DNA of 31,268 bases, taken from the NCBI GenBank assembly GCA_037721115.1, contig JBBJNX010000001.1, positions 1 through 31,268 on the forward strand, read 5' to 3'. A program made the translations under genes and the position numbers. Below the pieces are notes generated by a model that did no database searches, was not told where the DNA came from, and saw nothing but the letters and a program-made list of their open reading frames with translations. This document shows positions 21,937-31,268 of this stretch, piece by piece (position 1 is the first letter of the stretch; each line of letters begins with the position of its first letter). The stretch is from Candidatus Limnocylindria bacterium (GTDB lineage Bacteria; Chloroflexota; Limnocylindria; QHBO01).

Positions 21937-23163
21937 ATGCCCTCACGACCCGATCCCGCCCGCGTTCCCGTCATCGTCGATGGGGTGCGTACTCCCTTCG
22001 GACGTTACGGCGGTGCCCTGAAGGATGTCCGGCCTGACGACCTGGCGGCCCATGTCATTCGCGCGCTGGTCGAGCGGACCGGCATCGAACCCGGCAGCAT
22101 CGACGATGTGATTCTCGGGGCCGCCAACCAGGCGGGCGAGGACAACCGAAATGTCGGTCGCATGGCAGCTCTCCTCGCCGGGCTGCCGATCGAGGTCGCC
22201 GGCCAGACGGTGAATCGGCTCTGCGGCTCCGGTCTCCAGGCGGTCGTGTCGGCAGCGCACGCGATCGCCCATGGAGACGGCGACGTCATCATCGCCGGCG
22301 GCGTGGAGTCGATGACCCGCGCGCCGTTCGTGACCGCCAAGTCGTCGGCAGCCTTCCCGAGAGGCGAGCAGACGATGTATGACACCACCCTGGGCTGGCG
22401 ATTCACGAACCCGCGCCTTGCCGACGCCTACTATCCGCACTCGATGGGCGAGACGGCCGAGAACGTGGTCGATCGCTGCGGCGTCAGCCGAGAGGACCAG
22501 GACGCCTTCGCGGTGAGGTCGCAGCAGCGCTGGGCCGCCGCGAACGAGGCGGGCCGATTTGCTGACGAGATCGTGCCGATCGAGGTGCCGGACGGGCGCA
22601 CCATGCGGCTGGTCGACACCGACGAGCACCCGCGCCCGGAGGCTACCATCGAGTCACTCGGGACGCTCAAGCCTGCGTTCCGGCGCGATGCTTCAGGCTC
22701 CGTCACGGCTGGCAATAGCTCTGGCATCAACGACGGCGCGGCTGCGCTGCTGGTCATGAGCCAGGCTCGAGCGAATGAGCTCGGGATGAAGCCGATGGCG
22801 CGCATGGTCGCCTCCGCCGTCGCAGGAGTCGATCCGGCCACCATGGGCCTGGGACCGATCCCGGCCTCGCGTCGCGCGCTCGAGCGCGCCGGCATCGACG
22901 TGGACGCTCTCGATTTGGTGGAGCTCAACGAGGCGTTCGCCGCCCAGGCGGTGCCCGTGATGCGCGAGCTCGGCCTGGATCCCGAGAGGACCAACGTCAA
23001 CGGCGGCGCCATCGCCATCGGCCATCCGCTCGGCGCCTCGGGTGCCCGGCTCACGTCGACGCTGCTCCATGAGATGCGGCGCCGCGGCGCTCGCTACGGT
23101 CTTGTCACCATGTGCATCGGCGTGGGGCAGGGGATCGCGGCGGTATTCGAGGCAGTCGATTGA
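21937..23163 (+). CDS. Thiolase, PcaF/PaaJ-like (3-oxoadipyl-CoA thiolase group)
   Basis: Start ATG 21937. [46 protein letters not shown] and [11 protein letters not shown]. Confidence 0.92.
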
Positions 23164-23783
23164 ACCCTGATCGGCGCTGGATCAGCGTGACGGCCGCCGG
23201 CCAGGCGTCGGTCACGCCGGACATGGCCGTGGTCTCGTTCGCGGTCACGGGCACCGGGAAGGAGCTGGGCGCGACGCGCGACGATGTGAACGCTCGCTCG
23301 TCGTCGGTCCTGGCGAGCCTTCGGGAGCTAGGGACCGCGGAAGTCGACCTCAACGCACCCGATGCCATGGTCCAGCCGGAGTACGACTATCGGAAGGGTC
23401 AGCGCCTCATTGGCTATCGCGTGGCACGGCAGATGGTCGTCAGCGTGCGCGACCTCGATCGGCTGGGAGATCTGCTGGACCGTGTCGTCGGTGCTGGTGC
23501 GAACGAGGTGCATGGCGCGCAGATGAAGTCGTCTGATCCGTCAGCCGCCGAGCACGAGGCGCTTCGCCAAGCGACAGCAGCCGGGCGCGCCAAAGCCGAA
23601 GTCCTCGCGGCGGCAGCCGGCGTCACGCTCGGTGGCGTGCTGCGCATCGAGGAGGTGCTCGACGTCAACGGGCCGCCGATGCGAATGATGGCCGCGGCCG
23701 AATCGGCAGACGTGCAGACCGAGGTGGCGATCGGCGACCTGGCGGTCACCTGCCATATCCGGGCCTGGTTCGCGATCAAGTGA
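23160..23783 (+). CDS. SIMPL (DUF541) domain protein, no signal peptide
   Basis: [35 protein letters not shown] and [19 protein letters not shown]. The TTG start overlaps the thiolase TGA (TTGA). Confidence 0.85.
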
Positions 23784-23828
23784 CGAGGCCCGGTCGGCAA
23801 TGCCGGCTGGCCCACGGCCCGTGGATGA

Positions 23829-24077
23829 TCAGGCCTGCGTCCGCCAGTCGCAGAACAGCGCCAGCATCCGCGCAAGAGCCTCCGGCTCGAGGTCTCGCTC
23901 GCTCAGCCTGCCGATCGCCTGCATGGTCTGGCGCATCTGATCCAGGTGGGCCCCGCACCCGTCACATTCGAGGATATGCGCTTTGAAGTCGGCCCGGGTT
24001 GCGGCCGGGAGGCTGTCCTCCATGTAGTCAGTCACGAGCTCGACGAACTCTTGACATTTCATATCGGCGGGGACCAT
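23829..24077 (-). CDS. Soluble zinc-binding anti-sigma factor (zf-HC2/ZAS)
   Basis: CQEFVELVTDYME...HILECDGC (C...HxxxCxxC); ATG 24077 is 1 nt after the sigma stop, with GAGGA RBS; no TM segment. Confidence 0.88.
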   Translation of the reverse strand: MVPADMKCQEFVELVTDYMEDSLPAATRADFKAHILECDGCGAHLDQMRQTMQAIGRLSERDLEPEALARMLALFCDWRTQA

Positions 24078-24078
24078 C

Positions 24079-24804
24079 TCAGGATTCCTCCAACAGAGCT
24101 TCCAGCGATCCACGCACGTTGGACCGCGCGCGATGCAGGAGAACACGCTGATTGGCTGCGCTGATCTCGAGCGCGAGGCAGACCTCCTCGGACGCCCAGC
24201 CCTCAATGCACCGGAGCCAGAGAACGGTCCGCTGCACCGGGGGCAGCTCTTCGATGGACGCGGCCATCAGCGCCTGCGTCTCGGCGTGCAGCAATCGTTC
24301 CTCCACGCCGCCTTCCCACTGCCTCGGCGGCCAGAGCCAGTGGCCGGGCCACTCGTGGTCACTCGGTGGAATGAATCGTTCGGGGTCGACGCTCGGCAGC
24401 GTCCGCTCGCCAAGTTCGGTGGCCATGAGCGATGAGAATGGCACGACGCGCGCCTCTCGTTGTCCGCGTCGGCGGGCCACGTTCCTGAGAATCTGAAATA
24501 TCCAGGTACGCAGGGAGGACCGACCCTCGAAGGCTGTCAGTCCGTCGAGCACCGCGATCCATGTGTCCTGCACGACGTCCTCGGCGGCCGCCGAGGACGC
24601 CACATGGGCCCGAGCGACCCTGTACATCAAGGCGTGATGCGTCACCACCAGGCGCTCGAATTCTTCGGTGTCCCCGCTGCGCAATCGATGCAGTTGGGCC
24701 GCGTCGGTGAGCACGCCGCGGTCGACAACCTGTCCAGCGTCGATCTTCGCCTCGCCCGTTCGAGGTGGCGTTGTCTCGCCGGCGTCTACCCATACTCCAG
24801 CCAT
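24079..24804 (-). CDS. ECF sigma-70 factor
   Basis: Region 2 (AAEDVVQDTWIAVL...FEGRSSLRTWIFQILRN), Trp-rich linker RF...WPGHWLWPPRQW, and region 4 (LPPVQRTVLWLR...NQRVLLHRARS). Confidence 0.92.
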   Translation of the reverse strand: MAGVWVDAGETTPPRTGEAKIDAGQVVDRGVLTDAAQLHRLRSGDTEEFERLVVTHHALMYRVARAHVASSAAAEDVVQDTWIAVLDGLTAFEGRSSLRTWIFQILRNVARRRGQREARVVPFSSLMATELGERTLPSVDPERFIPPSDHEWPGHWLWPPRQWEGGVEERLLHAETQALMAASIEELPPVQRTVLWLRCIEGWASEEVCLALEISAANQRVLLHRARSNVRGSLEALLEES

Positions 24805-24862
24805 GCGCGATTCCCTGGTTTGCGTCCAAGCCTCAGCGATCGGGTTCTGGGGCGTGAACCAC

Positions 24863-24889
24863 GACGGAAGCTACCACCGGGATGTGACG
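24863..24889 (-). promoter_or_regulatory. Candidate ECF promoter upstream of the sigma gene
   Basis: Minus strand CGTCAC-N17-CGTC, about 60 nt upstream of ATG 24804; it resembles the generic ECF -35/-10 layout. Confidence 0.3.
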
Positions 24890-24933
24890 GGCGCATGACC
24901 ATGCTGTGATGCTCCTCAGATATTCTCCCTTCG

Positions 24934-24959
24934 TGTAACGGACGGTGCGGGCTGCGTAA
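24934..24959 (+). promoter_or_regulatory. Candidate ECF promoter upstream of the Mo-enzyme operon
   Basis: TGTAAC-N15-CGTAA resembles recalled B. subtilis SigX/SigW-type consensus; the spacer is 1 nt short. Confidence 0.35.
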
Positions 24960-25031
24960 CTGTCCTTTCGTCACGGGATGTCGGCCGAGCTGCTTCATCA
25001 GTCCGTCAACTTCCCGAGGAAGGATGCGTAG

Positions 25032-26630
25032 GTGTCCAATTCGAAGCAACCGATGAGATCGGCCATCCTGCTCGGCGCCGTTGCCGGGCTCATCGGTGGG
25101 TTGGCGATGATGTTCGTGATGCTTCTCCTGCGCACGCTGGCCGGGATCCCGACCACGGCCGAGCTGCTTGGCGATCGGATCGCCGCGTTGATCCCGGTCA
25201 ACGCCTTCCTTGCTCTGTTGGGTTTCTTCGGCGGCTACAACCAGTTCAAACAGCTCGGTATCGGGGCGGCCCTCGTCGGGCAGCTGGGTCTTGCGGTGTT
25301 CGGTGGTATCGCGCTGGCGATCCTGTCGAGACGCGAGGTGCTTGGCAACAGCGACGAGCCGTTGTGGGGCATCGGACGCCGGACCGTCGCAATCATCTTG
25401 GGGCTCAGTGTGGGCGTTTGGCTCCTCCTCGTTGCGGCCCTCTTTCCGAATCTCGACACGCACTATTTCGGCCTTCAGCCTGGCGTCGCGACGGTCGTGA
25501 CGAGCCTCGGTTTTGCCATCCTGCTTGCGACGTATGCCGCCGTGACGGTGGCGACACTCCGCCTCGTCAACGGGCCCACACGCGCCACCGGCGACGTGCC
25601 CAGCGCAGGCGTTGTCGTAAATCCGGGACGGCGCCGACTTCTCATCGGCGGCGCGGGCGCTGTGTTGGCAGCCTCTTCGGGCGGCATGCTTGTCCGCCTC
25701 TACGATCACGCCACGTTCAGCTACGACGGAATGCAGTACATCGGGCCGAATCTCGAGCCGATCACCCCGAATGATCGCTTTTACGTCGTCACCAAGAACG
25801 TCGTCGATCCGCGGGTGAACCAGGCGCTGTGGGCGCTCGAGGTCAATGGTCACGTCGAGCGACCGCAGACCTACGACTTCGGCCGGATCGAGGCAATGAG
25901 TCCGACCGAGCAGGAGACGACGCTGATGTGCATCAGCAACCCGATTTCGTGGGGTCTCATCAGCAACGCGGTCTGGACCGGCGTACCGATGCGAGTCCTG
26001 CTCGAGGAGGCCGGCGCACGGGAAGACGCTGTCGAGGTCGTATTACACGGCGCCGATGGCTACACCGATACGTTCAGCTTCGAGAAGGCAATGGAACCGA
26101 CGACGCTCGTTGCCTATCGGATGAATGGCGAGCCGCTTCCGCAGCGGCATGGCTTCCCCGCGCGGATCATCGTGCCGGGGCTCTACGGCGAGAAGAACGT
26201 CAAATGGGTCACCCGCATCGAGGTCGTCGACCGAGAGGCGAAGGGTTTCTACGAGATGCAGGGCTGGGGCCCTGACTTCACCGTGCCCAACCGGTCGCGG
26301 ATCGACGGCCCGAGCCTGAAGGATCCGATCAGGGTCGGTTCCGAAACGCTCCTGAACGGGATGGCCTTCGCCGGCAATCGCGGCGTGGGTCGCGTGGAGG
26401 TATCGACCGATCGTCAACGGACCTGGGAGCCCGCCGAGATCACATACGCGGGCACATCTCTGACCTGGTCGTTCTGGGAGTACCCATGGCAGCCCGGTCG
26501 GGCCGGCGATTACGAGATCGCCGTCCGGGCGATCGATGGCGACGGTAACCTCCAGACGTCCGACAAGCGAGGCACGGCGCCGCAGGGTGCCACCGGCCTC
26601 CATGTCGTCTCTGCCACCGTGGTGGCCTGA
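25032..26630 (+). CDS. Membrane-anchored molybdopterin-dependent oxidoreductase, sulfite oxidase family
   Basis: About 4 N-terminal TM helices, internal RRRLLIGG, Mo-ligating Cys in TLMCISN, YRMNGEPLPQRHGFPARIIVPGLYGEKNVKWV and a C-terminal dimerisation domain. Start is GTG 25032 or ATG 25053. Confidence 0.9.
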   Translation: MSNSKQPMRSAILLGAVAGLIGGLAMMFVMLLLRTLAGIPTTAELLGDRIAALIPVNAFLALLGFFGGYNQFKQLGIGAALVGQLGLAVFGGIALAILSRREVLGNSDEPLWGIGRRTVAIILGLSVGVWLLLVAALFPNLDTHYFGLQPGVATVVTSLGFAILLATYAAVTVATLRLVNGPTRATGDVPSAGVVVNPGRRRLLIGGAGAVLAASSGGMLVRLYDHATFSYDGMQYIGPNLEPITPNDRFYVVTKNVVDPRVNQALWALEVNGHVERPQTYDFGRIEAMSPTEQETTLMCISNPISWGLISNAVWTGVPMRVLLEEAGAREDAVEVVLHGADGYTDTFSFEKAMEPTTLVAYRMNGEPLPQRHGFPARIIVPGLYGEKNVKWVTRIEVVDREAKGFYEMQGWGPDFTVPNRSRIDGPSLKDPIRVGSETLLNGMAFAGNRGVGRVEVSTDRQRTWEPAEITYAGTSLTWSFWEYPWQPGRAGDYEIAVRAIDGDGNLQTSDKRGTAPQGATGLHVVSATVVA

Positions 26631-26635
26631 GGATC

Positions 26636-27322
26636 GTGGCGACCGATATCGAGCTGGAACGTGCGCGCGCCGACCCATACAGCTCCCGGACACGCATCTT
26701 CGACCGGTCCGACTGGCTCTATGCCTTCATGCGGGAGCACTGCTTTCGAGACGACACGGATCGCATCGATGCGGCTCTATGGGGAGGTGGGCGGCCCGAC
26801 CAGGGCACGCTCTTGATCGACATCGGTTGCGGACCGGGCACCTACACCCGACGGCTTGCCCAGCGACATCCTGGCCTGCGTACCCTCGGCATTGACCACT
26901 CGCCCGGCCAACTGAATCGCGCGCGTGACCATGCGCGCCAGGTCGGCGTCGCCAACTGCCGGTTCGAGCTCGGCGATGCCATGCGCTTGCCCCTCGCCGA
27001 CGAATCGGTCGACGCCGCGGTCGCATCACGCCTGCTCATGGTGCTGAGCGATCCCGCTCGCGCACTGGCAGAGATCTACCGTGCTCTGCGGCCCGGCGGG
27101 CGTTGTTTCATTGCTGAACCACGGCCCGGCCTGTGGACCGCGTTGCCGACGATGGCGCTGCGGCTGCTGGACCGCGCGTCCACCGGGGTGGTCCATTCAC
27201 CGACGGTGCCTGGCGATGACGCTGACTGGGCAGCCCTGCTCAATACGCAGCCATGGTCATGTATTTTCGAGTCCGCCGATCGTCGCTACCGGTACGCAGT
27301 GTGCGAGCGTCCAACGGCATGA
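26636..27322 (+). CDS. Class I SAM-dependent methyltransferase
   Basis: LIDIGCGPG motif I, GIDHS, GDAMRLPLADESVDA and RALRPGG. Confidence 0.88.
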   Translation: MATDIELERARADPYSSRTRIFDRSDWLYAFMREHCFRDDTDRIDAALWGGGRPDQGTLLIDIGCGPGTYTRRLAQRHPGLRTLGIDHSPGQLNRARDHARQVGVANCRFELGDAMRLPLADESVDAAVASRLLMVLSDPARALAEIYRALRPGGRCFIAEPRPGLWTALPTMALRLLDRASTGVVHSPTVPGDDADWAALLNTQPWSCIFESADRRYRYAVCERPTA

Positions 27323-28353
27323 GCACGCTCGTCACCGGAGGTGCCGGATTCATCGGCGCTACCGTCGTTGGTCGCTGTCTCGCGGCGGGTGAGCGCGTCA
27401 CGGTGCTCGATGACCTCTCCACCGCCGATCCGGACTGGGATGACAATTTCCAGGCCGAGCTGCTCGATGGCCGGCTCACGTTCGTGCGCGGCGACGTCAG
27501 CGATCTCGCGACGGTGGTCGACGCGATGGCGGGCCACGATTCCGTCGTGCATCTGGCGGCGAACACCAACATCCCCGGTGGCTACGACGATCCGAGCCTC
27601 GACCTCACGGGGTGCATCCTGGGAACGTGGAATGTCGCCGAGGCGATGCGGAGGCACGGCGTGCGGCGGCTGCTGTTCGCGTCGAGCGGGGTGGTCTACG
27701 GCGCGCCGCTCCGCACCCCGACCAACGAGGCATACGGCCCGATGCTGCCCGAGTCGCACTACGCCGCGGGCAAACTCGCCGGCGAGGCGATTCTCTCCGG
27801 CTTCGCCCATCTGCATGACTGGCGTGCGCTGGCCTTCCGGTTCGGCAATACCATCGGGCCGCGTTCGAATCACGGGGTGGTTCACGACTTCGTGGTAAAG
27901 CTGCTTCGCGATGGCACTCGTCTCGAGGTCATGGGCGACGGCCATCAGGCGAAACCGTACATCGATGTCGAGGATCTCGTTACCGGCGTCCTGCATGCCG
28001 AGCGGAAGGCCCTGGACCGTCCATTCACCGCCCTCAACGTGGCGACGTCTGGCACGCTCACGGTCAGTCGCGTGGCCGAGCTCGTCATCGAGGTACTCGG
28101 GCTCGACCGCGACGGCGTGGAGCTCGTCTTCAGTGGGGCCGCTCGCGGTGGTGGCGGTTGGGTCGGCGACACGCCGCTGGTCAACCTCGATGCGCGCGCG
28201 CTGCGTGCTCTGGGGTGGGAGCCGCGCCTGACCGCCGCGGAGTCGGTGCGAAGGGCGGCGCGCGGGATGCGGGATCGACTGCTGGGCACAGAGACGCCGT
28301 TCCGAACGACCGCCGAGCGTCGATCCGAGCCACGGCACGCCGTCGCGCGATGA
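27319..28353 (+). CDS. NAD-dependent NDP-sugar epimerase/dehydratase (extended SDR)
   Basis: Start ATG 27319 (ATGA overlap). TGGAGFIG, HLAA, FASSGVVYG and YAAGK (YxxxK). Confidence 0.9.
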   Translation: MSTLVTGGAGFIGATVVGRCLAAGERVTVLDDLSTADPDWDDNFQAELLDGRLTFVRGDVSDLATVVDAMAGHDSVVHLAANTNIPGGYDDPSLDLTGCILGTWNVAEAMRRHGVRRLLFASSGVVYGAPLRTPTNEAYGPMLPESHYAAGKLAGEAILSGFAHLHDWRALAFRFGNTIGPRSNHGVVHDFVVKLLRDGTRLEVMGDGHQAKPYIDVEDLVTGVLHAERKALDRPFTALNVATSGTLTVSRVAELVIEVLGLDRDGVELVFSGAARGGGGWVGDTPLVNLDARALRALGWEPRLTAAESVRRAARGMRDRLLGTETPFRTTAERRSEPRHAVAR

Positions 28354-29882
28354 CCGACGCCACGCTGGCGAGTCGCCGGTTGCACTCGCACGTCGCCAGC
28401 CGCGTGACCGCCCACCCGACCACCCCGGTCCCGGTCCTCCTCTGCGTTGCGGGTGCCCTTCTCGGCTTTGGCTGGCTTGCGTTCCTGCTGCTGCGGCGAG
28501 CCGATGGACTCGGCACCCTCGCCTACGATCAGGCGTTCTTTCAGCAGGTCGTCTGGAACGTGTCCGAGGGAAACGGCTTCGTTTCGAGCTTCAACGGAGG
28601 CAGCTTCCTGGGCCTCCACTTTTCTCCGCTGCTCGTCATCCCGGCGCTGGTCGAGACCGTCTGGGCCGACGCGCGCGTCCTCAGCCTCATTCACGCCTTT
28701 GCGCTTGCCGCCGCCGGGCCGGCAGCCTTTTTGTTCTTGCGAGCGGCATTCCGCCCGTCGCCGTCCGCGCCGTGGCTGGCAGCGGCGATCGCCGCGCCAC
28801 TGCCACTGTGGAGCGCCATCCAGGAGGCTGGTCGAGCCGACTTCCACACCGAGTCTCTTGCGCTGCCGTTCGCTCTGCTCGCCGGTTGGGCGGGCCTGCG
28901 CGGCCGGGCGCTTCTCCTCCTGGCATTCGCCGGGGTCGTGCTCCTGGCAAAGGAGGACCAGGGATTCACCGTTTTCGTGGTCGGCGCTCTCGTCGCCGCG
29001 CGTGGTCCCGGCAGGCTCCACGACGGACTCCGCCCCGTGGCAGGCGTTCGCGCCGCAGGCCTCATGCTGATGCCCATCGGCATCGTGTGGTCGCTCCTCG
29101 TCTTCACCGTGGTGATGCCGATTCTGCGAGACGGCGCAGACCTCGAGACGGGCTGGTACTACGAATGGATCATCGAGAATGGCGGCCCGTTGGCGAACGT
29201 GGAACGAATCGGCGAAGGGCTGACGAACGGTACCGGCTGGATGGGGGCAGCCGGCCTGCTGGTGTCGACGGCGGCGTTGGGATTGCTGCGGCCGGCATGG
29301 CTCCTGCTCGCCTTGCCACCAATCCTCGCCAACTTGCTGAGCTCGAATCTTGCGCAGGCCGATTTCAAGCTTCATTACACGCTCCTGTCCATGCTGCCGT
29401 TCCTCGCGGCTGCTGCGATCGGCGGGCGTCGGCTGCTGGCATGGACGGCTCGTCGTCGGCGGTCGGCAGATCGAGACGGCCAACGCCGCCCCGCGGGCAG
29501 GCTGCTCGTTGTTCTTGCCATACCGGCTCTCTGTGTGGCCTGGATCGGAGGAGGGCTGCCGCCGACCGAACGCACGGTGCACGGCCAATGGGATCGCCCA
29601 CCCGCCCACGACGAGCTGCTTCGATTCGCCCGGCAGATCCCCGCTGAAGTCGCAATCTCGGTGGACGATGGTCTCGCGCCGCCGCTCGCTTCGCGGAGTG
29701 ACATCTCCCTGATCCCACGCGGAGGTCCGGACGCGTGGGTGCTCGTCGACCGCGAGGCGCGGGATCCGGGCTACTTTTCCTGGGCCCGGCGAGAGGCGTT
29801 CGTCGAGGAGCTTCCCGCCAGTGGACGGTCCCTGCTCGCGGCAGGGGATCGGTTCGAACTGTGGGGGCCGATTGATGAGTGA
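28350..29882 (+). CDS. DUF2079-family multi-pass membrane protein (predicted GT-C glycosyltransferase)
   Basis: Start ATG 28350 (ATGA overlap). YDQAFFQQVVW, FLGLHFSPLL, DFHTE, LAKEDQG and HYT motifs; many TM segments. Confidence 0.82.
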   Translation: MTDATLASRRLHSHVASRVTAHPTTPVPVLLCVAGALLGFGWLAFLLLRRADGLGTLAYDQAFFQQVVWNVSEGNGFVSSFNGGSFLGLHFSPLLVIPALVETVWADARVLSLIHAFALAAAGPAAFLFLRAAFRPSPSAPWLAAAIAAPLPLWSAIQEAGRADFHTESLALPFALLAGWAGLRGRALLLLAFAGVVLLAKEDQGFTVFVVGALVAARGPGRLHDGLRPVAGVRAAGLMLMPIGIVWSLLVFTVVMPILRDGADLETGWYYEWIIENGGPLANVERIGEGLTNGTGWMGAAGLLVSTAALGLLRPAWLLLALPPILANLLSSNLAQADFKLHYTLLSMLPFLAAAAIGGRRLLAWTARRRRSADRDGQRRPAGRLLVVLAIPALCVAWIGGGLPPTERTVHGQWDRPPAHDELLRFARQIPAEVAISVDDGLAPPLASRSDISLIPRGGPDAWVLVDREARDPGYFSWARREAFVEELPASGRSLLAAGDRFELWGPIDE

Positions 29883-31268
29883 TCCGCTGGCGGCCGTCAT
29901 TCCGGCGCTGGATGAGGCGGCCTCGATCGGTGACCTCGTGAGCGGACTTCGCGAGGCCGGGGCCTGCTGCGTGATCGTGGTTGACGGCGGCTCGCAGGAT
30001 GGAACGCCCGAGGTCGCCGTGGCCGCAGGCGCCACCGTGGTGCGGGAGCATCGGCGCGGCTATGGGCGCGCCTGCCTCACGGGCGCCGAGGTAGCGCGGC
30101 AGGGGCACCGCCACGATGGGGTCGCCTTTCTGGACGGCGACGGTTCGTGCGACCCTGCCGACCTGCCACGGTTGCGCGCCGCGCTGCCCACCGCGGATCT
30201 GGTCCTCGGCCGGCGGCGTCCGCGAGACACGGAGGTGGGCGCGATGCCCTTGCACGCACGGCTGGGCAACATTCTCGTGGCGAGAATCATCACACTTCGC
30301 ACCGGGCGCCGCATCCATGACCTGCCGCCATTCAAGGTGATCCGCGCTGAGCTCCTCGGGCGCTTGAATCTGGACGCGGCCGGATACGGCTGGACGGTCC
30401 AGCTCATCTCTCGCGCGGCGACCGAGCGCTCCGCTCGGATTCGGGAGGTGCCGGTGCGGTTCCTTCGCCGGCGGGGTGGGGTGAGCAAGGTTGCCGGACG
30501 GCTGCGGGCATCGGTGCTGGCCGCCATCGCCATGCTGCGCACGGCCTGGACGGAGACTTCGCCGCGACCGGTCATCGCCATCGTGGCCAAGGCACCACGC
30601 GCCGGCCAGGTAAAGACGCGTCTCATTCAACACCTGGGAGGAGAAGGGGCAGCCGAGCTGTGGAGCGCATCCCTTGTCGATACCGCCGCCGTGCTGCACG
30701 TCGCCGCGGCCGAATTGCGCGCGATCCCGCTGATCGTTGCACGGGCCGCAGAGCGCGCGGAGGTCGCCGCACTCGTCGGTCCGGGTTGGCACTCGGTCGC
30801 GCAGGACAAACCGGACCTTGACGGCGCGATCGCAACTGCCTTCGAGACGGCCGCCAGGCTGGGTGCCGATCGGGCGGTCGTGGTGAGCGGCGACAACCCG
30901 GACCTTCCGCCAGGCCACCTCGGCGCGGCACTCCGCCAGCTGGATGCCGCCGACGCTGTACTGGGCCCCACCGAAGACGGCGGATATCATCTCGTCGGCC
31001 TGCGGTGGCGTCGGATCCCACCCGTTCCCCTCCTGGCGGGCCTCATGCGTCGTAGGTTCCGTCGACGCGTGCGAATGACCTTCGGTGTGGTGCCCATGGG
31101 CACCGGACGAGCACTCGACCGCACGCACCGGGCGCTCACGTCGAACGGGTTCGAAGTCACCCTGTCTCCGACGTGGCCCGACGTCGACACATCCGAAGAC
31201 CTGCGGCAGCTTGCCGCACGCCTCGAGGTGGCACCGGCCGACATCGCGCCGCGCACCCGGGCATGGCT
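29875..31268 (+). CDS. GT2 glycosyltransferase fused to a DUF2064/TIGR04282-like (CofC-like) domain; partial, runs off the window
   Basis: Absent from the ORF track; translated by hand from ATG 29875 with no stop to 31268. It reads VIPALDEAASI, VDGGSQDGT, GYGRAC, FLDGDGS, then AKAPRAGQVKTRL (30586), GDNPDL, GPTEDGGY (30964) and DVDT (31180). Confidence 0.88.
   Translation, partial: MSDPLAAVIPALDEAASIGDLVSGLREAGACCVIVVDGGSQDGTPEVAVAAGATVVREHRRGYGRACLTGAEVARQGHRHDGVAFLDGDGSCDPADLPRLRAALPTADLVLGRRRPRDTEVGAMPLHARLGNILVARIITLRTGRRIHDLPPFKVIRAELLGRLNLDAAGYGWTVQLISRAATERSARIREVPVRFLRRRGGVSKVAGRLRASVLAAIAMLRTAWTETSPRPVIAIVAKAPRAGQVKTRLIQHLGGEGAAELWSASLVDTAAVLHVAAAELRAIPLIVARAAERAEVAALVGPGWHSVAQDKPDLDGAIATAFETAARLGADRAVVVSGDNPDLPPGHLGAALRQLDAADAVLGPTEDGGYHLVGLRWRRIPPVPLLAGLMRRRFRRRVRMTFGVVPMGTGRALDRTHRALTSNGFEVTLSPTWPDVDTSEDLRQLAARLEVAPADIAPRTRAW

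Follow-up and report, generated by a model that had tools for sequence, protein, structure and literature searches.

A six-gene operon in a Limnocylindria genome that looks like an extended methylthioxylose pathway with an exported molybdoenzyme

The window that we analyzed, 31,268 nucleotides representing an entire contig (C304) of Candidatus Limnocylindria bacterium, ends in a group of coupled genes that looks like an extended version of the methylthioxylose (MTX) pathway known from Mycobacterium tuberculosis. On balance, we favor the reading that this operon, six genes long when continued onto a second contig, carries out an MTX-type modification of the cell envelope, in which a sulfur sugar is made and a molybdoenzyme acts on its sulfur. 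Direct support comes from gene order, domain families, co-occurrence across phyla, a reciprocal best match of the GT2 domain, a conserved twin-arginine motif and a predicted GT-C-like fold, whereas we infer the sulfur sugar and what the molybdoenzyme does. The first-pass annotation had postulated an uncharacterized pathway for a sugar containing S, Se or As, with the molybdoenzyme setting its redox state. The characterized MTX pathway covers four of the five families concerned, and only the molybdoenzyme and the methyltransferase are left unexplained by it. A sulfur-bearing sugar whose redox state would be set by the molybdoenzyme is the part of that proposal that we keep as the best reading, while selenium and arsenic found no support.

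Organization and conservation of the operon

Five co-directional genes at positions 25,032–31,268 encode the molybdoenzyme (Mo enzyme), a methyltransferase (MT), an extended SDR, a DUF2079 membrane protein and a fusion of a GT2 and a DUF2064 domain, and every family was confirmed with Pfam (Table 1). The reading frames and junctions given in the first-pass annotation proved exact: a 5-nt gap separates the Mo and MT genes, an ATGA is common to MT and SDR and another to SDR and the DUF2079 gene, and the latter overlaps the fusion by 8 nt (ATGAGTGA). Downstream sequence, whose retrieval had been recommended, came from contig C76, the reverse complement of which shares 35 nt with the end of C304, a single mismatch included. 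This contig completes the fusion with its final 14 codons and adds one more coupled gene, the sixth, which encodes a PNP_UDP_1 nucleoside phosphorylase (PNP), and the join is confirmed by the agreeing gene order in two related genomes, G060 and G015. Neither a radical SAM gene, whose absence had been remarked on for the part then shown, nor any ars gene was found in the locus, including its C76 continuation, and no dedicated flippase gene was visible there. Promoter and terminator scans gave no signal above shuffled expectation. The suggestion that the pathway is stress-induced rested on the neighboring ECF sigma gene, which G060 lacks at the corresponding locus, and we do not retain it.

Table 1. 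Features of the operon and of its upstream flank in the window
Feature	Position	Strand	Pfam match or remark
ECF sigma gene	24079..24804	−	divergent neighbor of operon
Intergenic region 5' of operon, divergent from ECF sigma gene	24805..25031	.	presumed promoter site
Mo enzyme, 532 aa	25032..26630	+	PF00174 7e-45, PF03404
MT, UbiE/Methyltransf_11 type, 228 aa	26636..27322	+	PF08241 3.8e-25
Extended SDR, NDP-sugar epimerase type, 344 aa	27319..28353	+	PF01370 1.6e-42
DUF2079 polytopic membrane protein, predicted GT-C, 510 aa	28350..29882	+	PF09852 1.8e-41
GT2 domain of fusion, MtxS-like polyprenyl-phosphate sugar synthase (predicted)	29875..30558	+	PF00535
DUF2064 domain of fusion, predicted sugar-1-phosphate nucleotidyltransferase, cut at contig end	30559..31268	+	PF09837 2.6e-19

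The order Mo-MT-SDR-GT-C-GT2::DUF2064-PNP was found unchanged in G060, G219, G052 and G193, which represent three genera and two families of Limnocylindria, and in G004 up to a contig end that falls before the PNP gene. Because identical order recurs in these five other genomes of the class, across 39–98% protein identity, the arrangement is not due to chance. Translational coupling joins the phosphorylase gene to the cluster in six Limnocylindria genomes, as it does in the actinobacterium Rubrobacter marinus, where the seven families are rearranged (GT2-DUF2064-Mo-SDR-MT-YfhO-PNP) and the SDR and PNP are of the mycobacterial type. The co-occurrence survey that had been called for therefore returned the families in the same order within Limnocylindria and in another order in R. 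marinus. The earlier statement that such clusters have no known product is not supported, as PNP, DUF2064, SDR, GT2 and GT-C are the families of the characterized MTX pathway of M. tuberculosis. The host of the window belongs to Chloroflexota, not to Actinomycetota.

Other clusters vary in content. The Mo and MT genes have been deleted in G015 and G005, with the remaining cluster intact, and are also missing from other variants, indicating that they are dispensable. Sister clusters carry an unrelated methyltransferase, an Rv1681-family radical SAM enzyme and DoxX in place of Mo-MT; the methyltransferase that precedes their radical SAM gene is unrelated to the MT of the window.

Proposed sugar synthesis and transfer compared with the mycobacterial pathway

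So far, MTX, a 5-deoxy-5-methylthio-xylofuranose, is known solely from mycobacterial lipoarabinomannan, on which it forms a minor cap. The capping of M. tuberculosis lipoarabinomannan with this sugar is said to have been described by Angala and colleagues in 2017, reportedly with roles for Rv0535 (Pnp), Rv0536 (GalE3) and Rv0540. In all comparisons, Mycobacterium sp. SM1 served as the proxy for M. tuberculosis; between its menA and menE lie genes for a PNP_UDP_1 protein, an SDR, a GT2, a DUF2064 protein and a 450-aa membrane protein, which is the layout of Rv0534c–Rv0542c. Rv0539 (MtxS) makes polyprenyl-phosphate-MTX and Rv0541c (MtxT) transfers MTX (PMC8780516; PMC12088412), and MSX, the sulfoxide form of MTX, is a known lipoarabinomannan epitope (PMC6258851). 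The operon of the window, with its C76 continuation, contains the same five families, namely PNP_UDP_1, extended SDR, GT2, DUF2064 and a GT-C-type membrane transferase, and would follow the same course, from nucleoside to sugar-1-phosphate, NDP-sugar, epimer and polyprenyl-phosphate sugar, and then to extracytoplasmic transfer.

The GT2 domain links the two loci. Its best match in SM1 was the GT2 between menA and menE (44% identity, 1.8e-30; next GT2, 3.4e-13), and the reverse search in G000 returned the fusion as best match (40% identity, 1.8e-20; next, 2.4e-9). The domain is the reciprocal best match of the GT2 in the MtxS position, and its orthology to Rv0539 itself would rest on the synteny of SM1. 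Unlike the mycobacterial arrangement, in which DUF2064 is a separate adjoining gene, the window has this domain C-terminal on the GT2, an architecture found in 612 database proteins.

The remaining genes differ more. The SDR, with GGAGFIG and YxxxK motifs, is nearest to archaeal GDP-sugar 4-epimerases, and an assignment to the mycobacterial GalE3 type (Rv0536) was rejected, the syntenic mycobacterial SDR being only its third-best match in SM1 (1.3e-6); SDRs of the GalE3 type do occur in sister clusters, in G031 (51% identity) and R. marinus. The phosphorylase is DeoD-type rather than MTAP-type (196 bits vs the 230-bit cut-off), has no match in the SM1 genome, and does resemble the hexameric MTAP of Sulfolobus solfataricus (1JDS, 2.5e-31). 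Pairwise BLASTP among the DUF2079 protein, a 457-aa protein of G031 and the 450-aa mycobacterial membrane protein found no significant similarity, and we therefore rejected the DUF2079 protein as an ortholog of MtxT, its modeled fold being GT-C-like. Because the SDR and PNP subfamilies differ, and the GT-C candidates share no detectable sequence similarity, the sugar could differ from MTX. The acceptor would also be another one, as a Chloroflexota host has no lipoarabinomannan, and the window adds a methyltransferase and an exported Mo enzyme to the mycobacterial set.

The differing SDR and PNP subfamilies would also be in keeping with a chassis fed with another 5'-substituted adenosine, such as 5'-deoxyadenosine, giving a 5-deoxypentose, or S-adenosylhomocysteine, with the MT and Mo enzyme installing or modifying a heteroatom group later. 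5'-Deoxyadenosine is released by radical SAM enzymes, phosphorylases of the DeoD type act broadly on purine nucleosides, and the exchange of Mo-MT for an unrelated methyltransferase, a radical SAM enzyme and DoxX in the sister clusters points the same way. We nevertheless consider this alternative unlikely. No Rv1681-type radical SAM gene was found in the 78%-complete assembly of the window's genome, R. marinus pairs orthologs of the same Mo enzyme and MT with PNP and SDR of the mycobacterial type, and methylthioadenosine is the ubiquitous substrate of this kind.

The DUF2079 protein is predicted, from its modeled fold, to be a GT-C enzyme whose donor, on the outer side of the membrane, would be a polyprenyl-phosphate sugar. 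Its 28 best matches in a Foldseek search of the PDB were all GT-C enzymes (among them ALG12, STT3, ArnT, PglB and AftA), with probabilities of about 1 and TM scores of 0.35–0.47 for a weak model (pLDDT 59), and D60, located after the first transmembrane (TM) helix, is invariant in 10 orthologs. The lipid-carrier logic put forward in the first-pass annotation holds, and is that of the GtrA/B/C, ArnC/ArnT and PpgS/Rv3779 systems, in which polyprenyl phosphate receives the sugar from a GT2 in the cytoplasm and a GT-C passes it on outside the membrane. It is conceivable, at a similarly low probability, that the operon is an ordinary lipid-linked hexose or amino-sugar system of this kind (GtrB/GtrC, ArnC/ArnT or PpgS/Rv3779 type), and that DUF2064 and the phosphorylase have no part in sugar synthesis. 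The NCBIfam models nearest to the GT2 domain are indeed AglJ, Dol-P-hexose transferase and PpgS, and the solved relative nearest to the SDR epimerizes GDP- and UDP-hexoses. However, in this operon the GT2 carries a fused DUF2064, the phosphorylase is coupled in the seven genomes counted above, and the mycobacterial MTX locus is built of the same five families; unlike those systems, the locus appears to make its own unusual nucleotide sugar through the phosphorylase and DUF2064. The DUF2064 domain gave weaker CofC and MobA-like matches besides PF09837, and matched PDB entry 3CGX (3e-13). A full-text literature search on DUF2064 and DUF2079 returned no match.

The molybdoenzyme and the methyltransferase

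The Mo enzyme begins with a polytopic domain that is heme-less; a twin-arginine motif and the last TM helix come next, then the Mo domain and a dimerization domain of the Ig-like type. The motif (R200-R201) precedes the last TM helix and is invariant in 38 sequences, and the protein is predicted to be a membrane-anchored, Tat-exported molybdoenzyme of the sulfite-oxidase fold. By sequence and by fold, its PDB matches were SoxC, SorA and chicken sulfite oxidase; the AF2 model (pLDDT 85.5, pTM 0.80) matched the two-domain fold of sulfite and sulfane dehydrogenases and eukaryotic sulfite oxidase in Foldseek, with TM scores by target of 0.65–0.73. In the alignment, the Mo-ligand cysteine (C300) is kept, as in those enzymes, whereas V and K stand at the positions of SorA R55 and H57, and the R109-bearing loop has no counterpart. 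On the NCBIfam models of sulfite dehydrogenases (SorA/SorT/SoxC), the protein reached 138 of 600 bits (SorA), 129 of 420 and 85 of 570. We rejected an assignment to SorA, SorT or SoxC on these scores and residues, despite the cysteine and PF03404, and unlike those enzymes and eukaryotic sulfite oxidase, the Mo enzyme has a membrane anchor and a genetic link to glycosylation genes. An assignment to MsrP (YedY) was rejected as well, with 59.7 bits against a cut-off of 207 and YedY a distant fold match behind all two-domain enzymes.

The Sco3746 family comprises heme-molybdenum membrane proteins inserted by both Sec and Tat, in which four conserved TM histidines ligate two hemes b (Tooke et al. 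2017, PMC5449189). The Mo enzyme resembles this family and MsrPQ in its polytopic N-terminus, followed by the twin-arginine motif, the last TM helix and an extracytoplasmic Mo domain of the sulfite-oxidase fold, and it could plausibly act on a thioether or sulfoxide. Unlike the Sco3746 family, it has no evident heme b site, and an alignment of 17 members showed no conserved histidine within residues 1–230. The Mo part includes a dimerization domain and lies nearer to SorA and SoxC than to MsrP. This greater likeness to sulfite dehydrogenases than to MsrP, dimerization domain included, counts against our proposal. An Atlas search with the membrane domain returned only unnamed clusters.

Cluster-linked Mo enzymes from Chloroflexota, Actinomycetota and Acidobacteriota, that of the window among them, form a single clade with 100/100 support, apart from a housekeeping paralog whose neighborhoods have no common theme. 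All three of the distant homologs sampled adjoin DUF2064 genes, and high-identity orthologs were found only in genomes with a strong DUF2064 match. The MT, a class I SAM-dependent enzyme on which no NCBIfam model reaches its cut-off, likewise has orthologs (44–47% identity) in DUF2064 clusters of R. marinus, a Pyrinomonadaceae MAG and two metagenome contigs. The Mo enzyme and MT might still be passengers that are only co-transcribed with the glycosylation genes, the former serving as a sulfite dehydrogenase or in general redox or repair functions of the envelope. Whether or not DUF2064 is present, a paralog of the same architecture occurs in 223 of 251 Limnocylindria genomes, and the intact clusters of G015 and G005 without Mo-MT agree with such a role. 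Against it stand the association of a distinct clade with DUF2064 genes, seen across three phyla and under several gene orders, the presence in G025 of a Mo enzyme from outside the clade at the same position, and the alignment, in which the sulfite-binding residues R55 and H57 of SorA are not conserved; we consider this explanation quite improbable.

Cyanobacterial-type arsenosugar loci (ArsM, ArsS, TIGR04282, TIGR04283) also pair a DUF2064-family protein with a GT2, and both pathways would process a 5'-substituted 5'-deoxyadenosine, but an arsenosugar or selenosugar pathway, suggested by the NCBIfam name of TIGR04282, is close to refuted and was rejected, since the DUF2064 domain scores 119.8 bits on that model, below its 134-bit cut-off, the weakly ArsM-like core of the MT scores 30 of 400 bits on the arsenosugar ArsM model, and no ArsS was found in the 78%-complete genome assembly (TIGR04167 matches reach at most 22.6 bits).

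Proposed pathway and significance

In the MTX-type pathway that we propose, the DeoD-type phosphorylase would cleave a 5'-substituted 5'-deoxyadenosine, most likely 5'-methylthioadenosine, to a pentose-1-phosphate, which the DUF2064 domain, as a relative of CofC and MobA, may activate with an NTP, possibly GTP. The SDR would epimerize the nucleotide sugar, and the fused GT2 domain would move the sugar onto polyprenyl phosphate. After flipping, the DUF2079 GT-C could pass it to an envelope acceptor. The cytoplasmic UbiE-like MT probably tailors the sugar or its precursor, and the Tat-exported Mo enzyme would convert the sulfur of the sugar between its thioether and sulfoxide forms outside the cell. 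We infer all substrates, the nucleotide and the acceptor, as well as what the Mo enzyme does and in which direction. The MTX route does not explain the role of the MT, because methylthioadenosine already carries a methyl group, and since the membrane domain of the Mo enzyme is devoid of conserved histidines, there is no obvious heme route for reducing electrons.

A more speculative idea, which we regard as possible but doubtful, is that the methylthio-sugar shields the cell surface as an antioxidant that can be renewed: its thioethers would scavenge oxidants, and the dedicated, Tat-exported Mo clade would regenerate them from the sulfoxide. If true, the system would parallel the methionine/MsrP cycle in carbohydrate form, and MTX-type sugars would be widespread among soil bacteria and not just a peculiarity of mycobacteria.

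The presence of the extended cluster in uncultured soil Chloroflexota, in cultured Rubrobacter and in an Acidobacteriota MAG suggests that decoration of the envelope with 5-thio-pentoses may be widespread. Our proposal offers working roles for DUF2064 and DUF2079, and a first role for a large membrane-anchored family of the sulfite-oxidase fold, with more than 3,400 database homologs. The Mo enzyme and MT accompany the pathway in three phyla, and the dedicated Mo clade provides a concrete, testable handle on the purpose of the sulfur. Since R. marinus is cultured, the idea is directly testable.

Extent of the operon

The first-pass annotation had described five coupled genes, and when the open reading frames (ORFs) and overlaps were rechecked in the window, both the genes and their junctions proved exact; the overlap between the GT-C and fusion genes reads ATGAGTGA. 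The source assembly is a MAG of 407 contigs, 78% complete, in which the window is one complete contig of 31,268 bp. Judging by the names that close homologs bear, the genome belongs to class Limnocylindria of Chloroflexota and not to Actinomycetota. The assembly break falls in the 3' end of the fusion gene, and the ORF track therefore lacks both the end of this gene and the phosphorylase gene downstream. The reverse complement of a second contig of the same genome, C76, matches the final 35 nt of the window with one mismatch (window 31234-31268; L019:4342-4376), an overlap that is probably due to strain heterogeneity. C76 carries the last 14 codons of the fusion gene, then a closely coupled sixth gene, which belongs to the PNP_UDP_1 nucleoside phosphorylase superfamily (PNP), and lastly a convergent GNAT gene. 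The related genomes G015 and G060 show the same order, so the operon comprises six genes and ends at PNP.

Operon genes within the window, with Pfam domains and junctions
Gene	Position	Pfam domains	Junction with next gene
Molybdoenzyme (Mo)	25032-26630	PF00174, PF03404	5-nt gap
Methyltransferase (MT)	26636-27322	PF08241	ATGA overlap
Epimerase-type enzyme (SDR)	27319-28353	PF01370	ATGA overlap
GT-C membrane protein	28350-29882	PF09852 (DUF2079)	8-nt overlap
GT2::DUF2064 fusion	from 29875	PF00535, PF09837	

No radical SAM gene is present in the completed six-gene operon, as had already been remarked for its visible part, and searches across the 78% complete assembly detected no ArsS and no radical SAM of the Rv1681 type. 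The interval that separates the thiolase gene from the operon (window 23112-24804) holds a SIMPL/DUF541 gene on the plus strand and, on the minus strand, an ECF sigma factor gene beside a 153-aa ORF of no recognized family, possibly an anti-sigma factor. This ECF pair is absent from the equivalent site in G060, which leaves the earlier suggestion of a stress-induced pathway without support.

Correspondence with the methylthioxylose pathway

Taken together, PNP, SDR, GT2, DUF2064 and GT-C are the protein families that make up the methylthioxylose (MTX) capping cluster of M. tuberculosis, so that a pathway initially regarded as uncharacterised is not so at its core. All mycobacterial gene comparisons were made against Mycobacterium sp. 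SM1 in place of M. tuberculosis; its gene order is menA, PNP_UDP_1, SDR, GT2, DUF2064, a 450-aa membrane protein and menE, matching the Rv0534c-Rv0542c layout. The CRISPR repeats of this environmental strain (L046, NZ_JAFLNH010000001.1) include the 18-nt core of the direct repeat known from M. tuberculosis. Angala et al. 2017 reportedly proposed a route from methylthioadenosine through methylthioribose-1-phosphate and a nucleotide sugar to its C-3 epimer. MtxS (Rv0539) produces the polyprenyl-phosphate MTX donor, and MtxT (Rv0541c) moves MTX onto lipoarabinomannan (LAM) (PMC8780516, PMC12088412).

The window GT2 domain and the GT2 of the SM1 cluster are reciprocal best hits, and the nearest models of the domain (AglJ, Dol-P-hexose transferase and PpgS) are all loaders of sugar onto polyprenyl phosphate. 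By sequence comparison, the other parts are analogues of their SM1 counterparts, not orthologs. Among solved structures, the window SDR is closest to the promiscuous GDP-sugar 4-epimerase of Pyrococcus horikoshii (1e-66), and the SM1 cluster SDR ranks third among its matches in the SM1 genome. The phosphorylase is of the DeoD type, is also similar to the hexameric methylthioadenosine phosphorylase of S. solfataricus, and has no match in the SM1 genome. No sequence relationship was detected between the membrane transferases of the two clusters; the 28 best PDB fold matches of the DUF2079 protein, obtained from a weak AF2 model (pLDDT 59), were all GT-C enzymes, and an invariant aspartate follows its first transmembrane helix. 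The DUF2064 domain has a match to PDB 3CGX and weaker ones to CofC and MobA-type guanylyltransferases, a profile better suited to a sugar-phosphate nucleotidyltransferase than to a glycosyltransferase. Particular to the present case are a host from Chloroflexota, the fusion of GT2 with DUF2064, a transferase of the DUF2079 family, a phosphorylase of DeoD type, an SDR of archaeal type and a Mo enzyme with a haem-less anchor.

Since the SDR and PNP subfamilies differ from the mycobacterial ones, it is possible that the sugar derives from a 5'-deoxyadenosine derivative other than that of MTX. If the locus were a plain hexose modification system, the fusion to DUF2064 and the coupling of a phosphorylase would be left unexplained. 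An arsenosugar reading was rejected, with model scores under the cut-offs, no ArsS found in the 78% complete assembly and no ArsM; the proposed sulfur, selenium or arsenic sugar narrows to sulfur, and the original observation stands with its interpretation supported in part only.

Distribution and variants of the cluster

A strong DUF2064 match occurred in only 12 of the 251 Limnocylindria genomes sampled (a count that takes in the unpublished genome G257), indicating that the system is accessory. The SDR-DUF2079-GT2::DUF2064 core was present in all 14 fusion loci inspected. Variant A, Mo-MT-core-PNP, was found in the window genome (G000), G060, G219, G052 and G193, and as far as the contig end in G004, spanning three genera and two families at 39-98% identity. 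Mo and MT are deleted in G015 and G005 (variant A-minus); a 37-codon MT remnant in G005 (L018:2862-2972; equivalent G015 site, L013:17052-17249) indicates deletion there, not insertion in the window genome. In these two same-genus genomes, the SIMPL and ECF sigma genes were lost along with Mo and MT between the thiolase gene and SDR. In G015, which has no Mo-MT, an Rv1681-family radical SAM gene and DoxX (L013:371-1971) lie some 10 kb away from the SDR-GT-C-GT2::DUF2064-PNP cluster, a hint that the Mo-MT and radical SAM-DoxX modules may be alternatives.

In variant B (L020, L021, L112), the core comes after an MT of a type unrelated to the window MT, a radical SAM gene of the Rv1681 family and DoxX; in L022:2528-4714 that MT forms the end of a 728-aa GT2-DUF2064-methyltransferase triple fusion, directly followed by the Rv1681-family radical SAM gene. 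Variant D places a two-component system and a window-type MT ahead of the core, with no Mo gene nearby. Variant C, in five genomes of a second family (G031, G169, G025, G126, G177), has unfused DUF2064 and GT2, a different GT-C-like protein and a GalE3-type SDR 51% identical to the mycobacterial one; an aminotransferase gene occurs in at least four of the five, and a Mo gene in all four with contigs extending that far. The Mo gene of G169 (L096:9651-11178) is split by a TGA or frameshift, and L020:7448-9980 contains broken SDR and DUF2079 frames; some clusters thus appear to be decaying.

The molybdoenzyme and the proposed pathway

The Mo enzyme family has more than 3,400 database homologs, from which three distant ones (48-53% identity) were chosen solely for their long contigs; DUF2064 genes neighbour all three. 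The order is GT2-DUF2064-Mo-SDR-MT-YfhO(GT-C)-PNP in Rubrobacter marinus and Mo-DUF2064-GT87-SDR-GT2 in the third contig, while a Pyrinomonadaceae MAG has Mo-MT-radical SAM with DUF2064-GT87-SDR about 7 kb off. The R. marinus and Pyrinomonadaceae MTs are 45-46% identical to the window MT, and the R. marinus SDR and PNP are of mycobacterial types, a combination that links Mo and MT with genuine genes of the MTX type. A Mo paralog of the same architecture, 34-46% identical, occurs without linked glycosylation genes in 223 of 251 Limnocylindria genomes (a tally that takes in the unpublished G257, G154, G110, G236 and G145). This housekeeping form, exemplified by a membrane-anchored, Tat-motif, haem-less protein on another contig of the window genome (C298:1745-3304; L104), showed no conserved neighbours in the neighbourhoods inspected. 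Within this sample, Mo orthologs of at least 51% identity occur only in genomes with strong DUF2064 matches. In the tree, nine of ten cluster-linked Mo enzymes, from three phyla, form one clade (support 100/100), a result that makes it unlikely that the enzyme is a mere passenger; the G025 enzyme falls outside this clade, which suggests a second recruitment.

The Mo protein has a polytopic N-terminal domain followed by Mo and dimerisation domains, with an invariant twin-arginine motif preceding the last transmembrane helix. The positive-inside rule and analogy with Sco3746 (PMC5449189) predict that the Mo domain faces outward, and the cluster-linked clade has additional conserved motifs on the side of the membrane domain that is predicted to face outward. 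Unlike that of Sco3746, the membrane domain of the Mo enzyme has no conserved histidines, and hence no evident haem b site. The closest folds are SorA, SoxC and sulfite oxidase, with the Mo-ligand cysteine retained. In the alignment, which is the sole basis for these residues, SorA R55 and H57 are replaced by V and K and the R109-bearing loop is absent, so the substrate is likely to be other than sulfite. Both its SorA-like build and the missing haem route speak against a simple analogy between this enzyme and MsrP.

From the anatomy, homologies and co-occurrence established here, we infer the substrates of the following route. The phosphorylase would act on a 5'-deoxyadenosine derivative, in the simplest case methylthioadenosine, to free a 5-substituted pentose-1-phosphate; DUF2064 would form an NDP-sugar, which may be a GDP-sugar because the domain is related to CofC and MobA and the SDR to GDP-sugar epimerases; the SDR would epimerise it; the fused GT2 would put the sugar on polyprenyl phosphate; and DUF2079 would pass it to an acceptor outside the membrane. 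The methylthio group resembles the methionine side chain, and mycobacterial LAM is known to bear MTX in its sulfoxide form as an epitope (PMC6258851). The most plausible target of the exported Mo enzyme is the sulfur of the sugar, on which it would act as a reductase or an oxidase.
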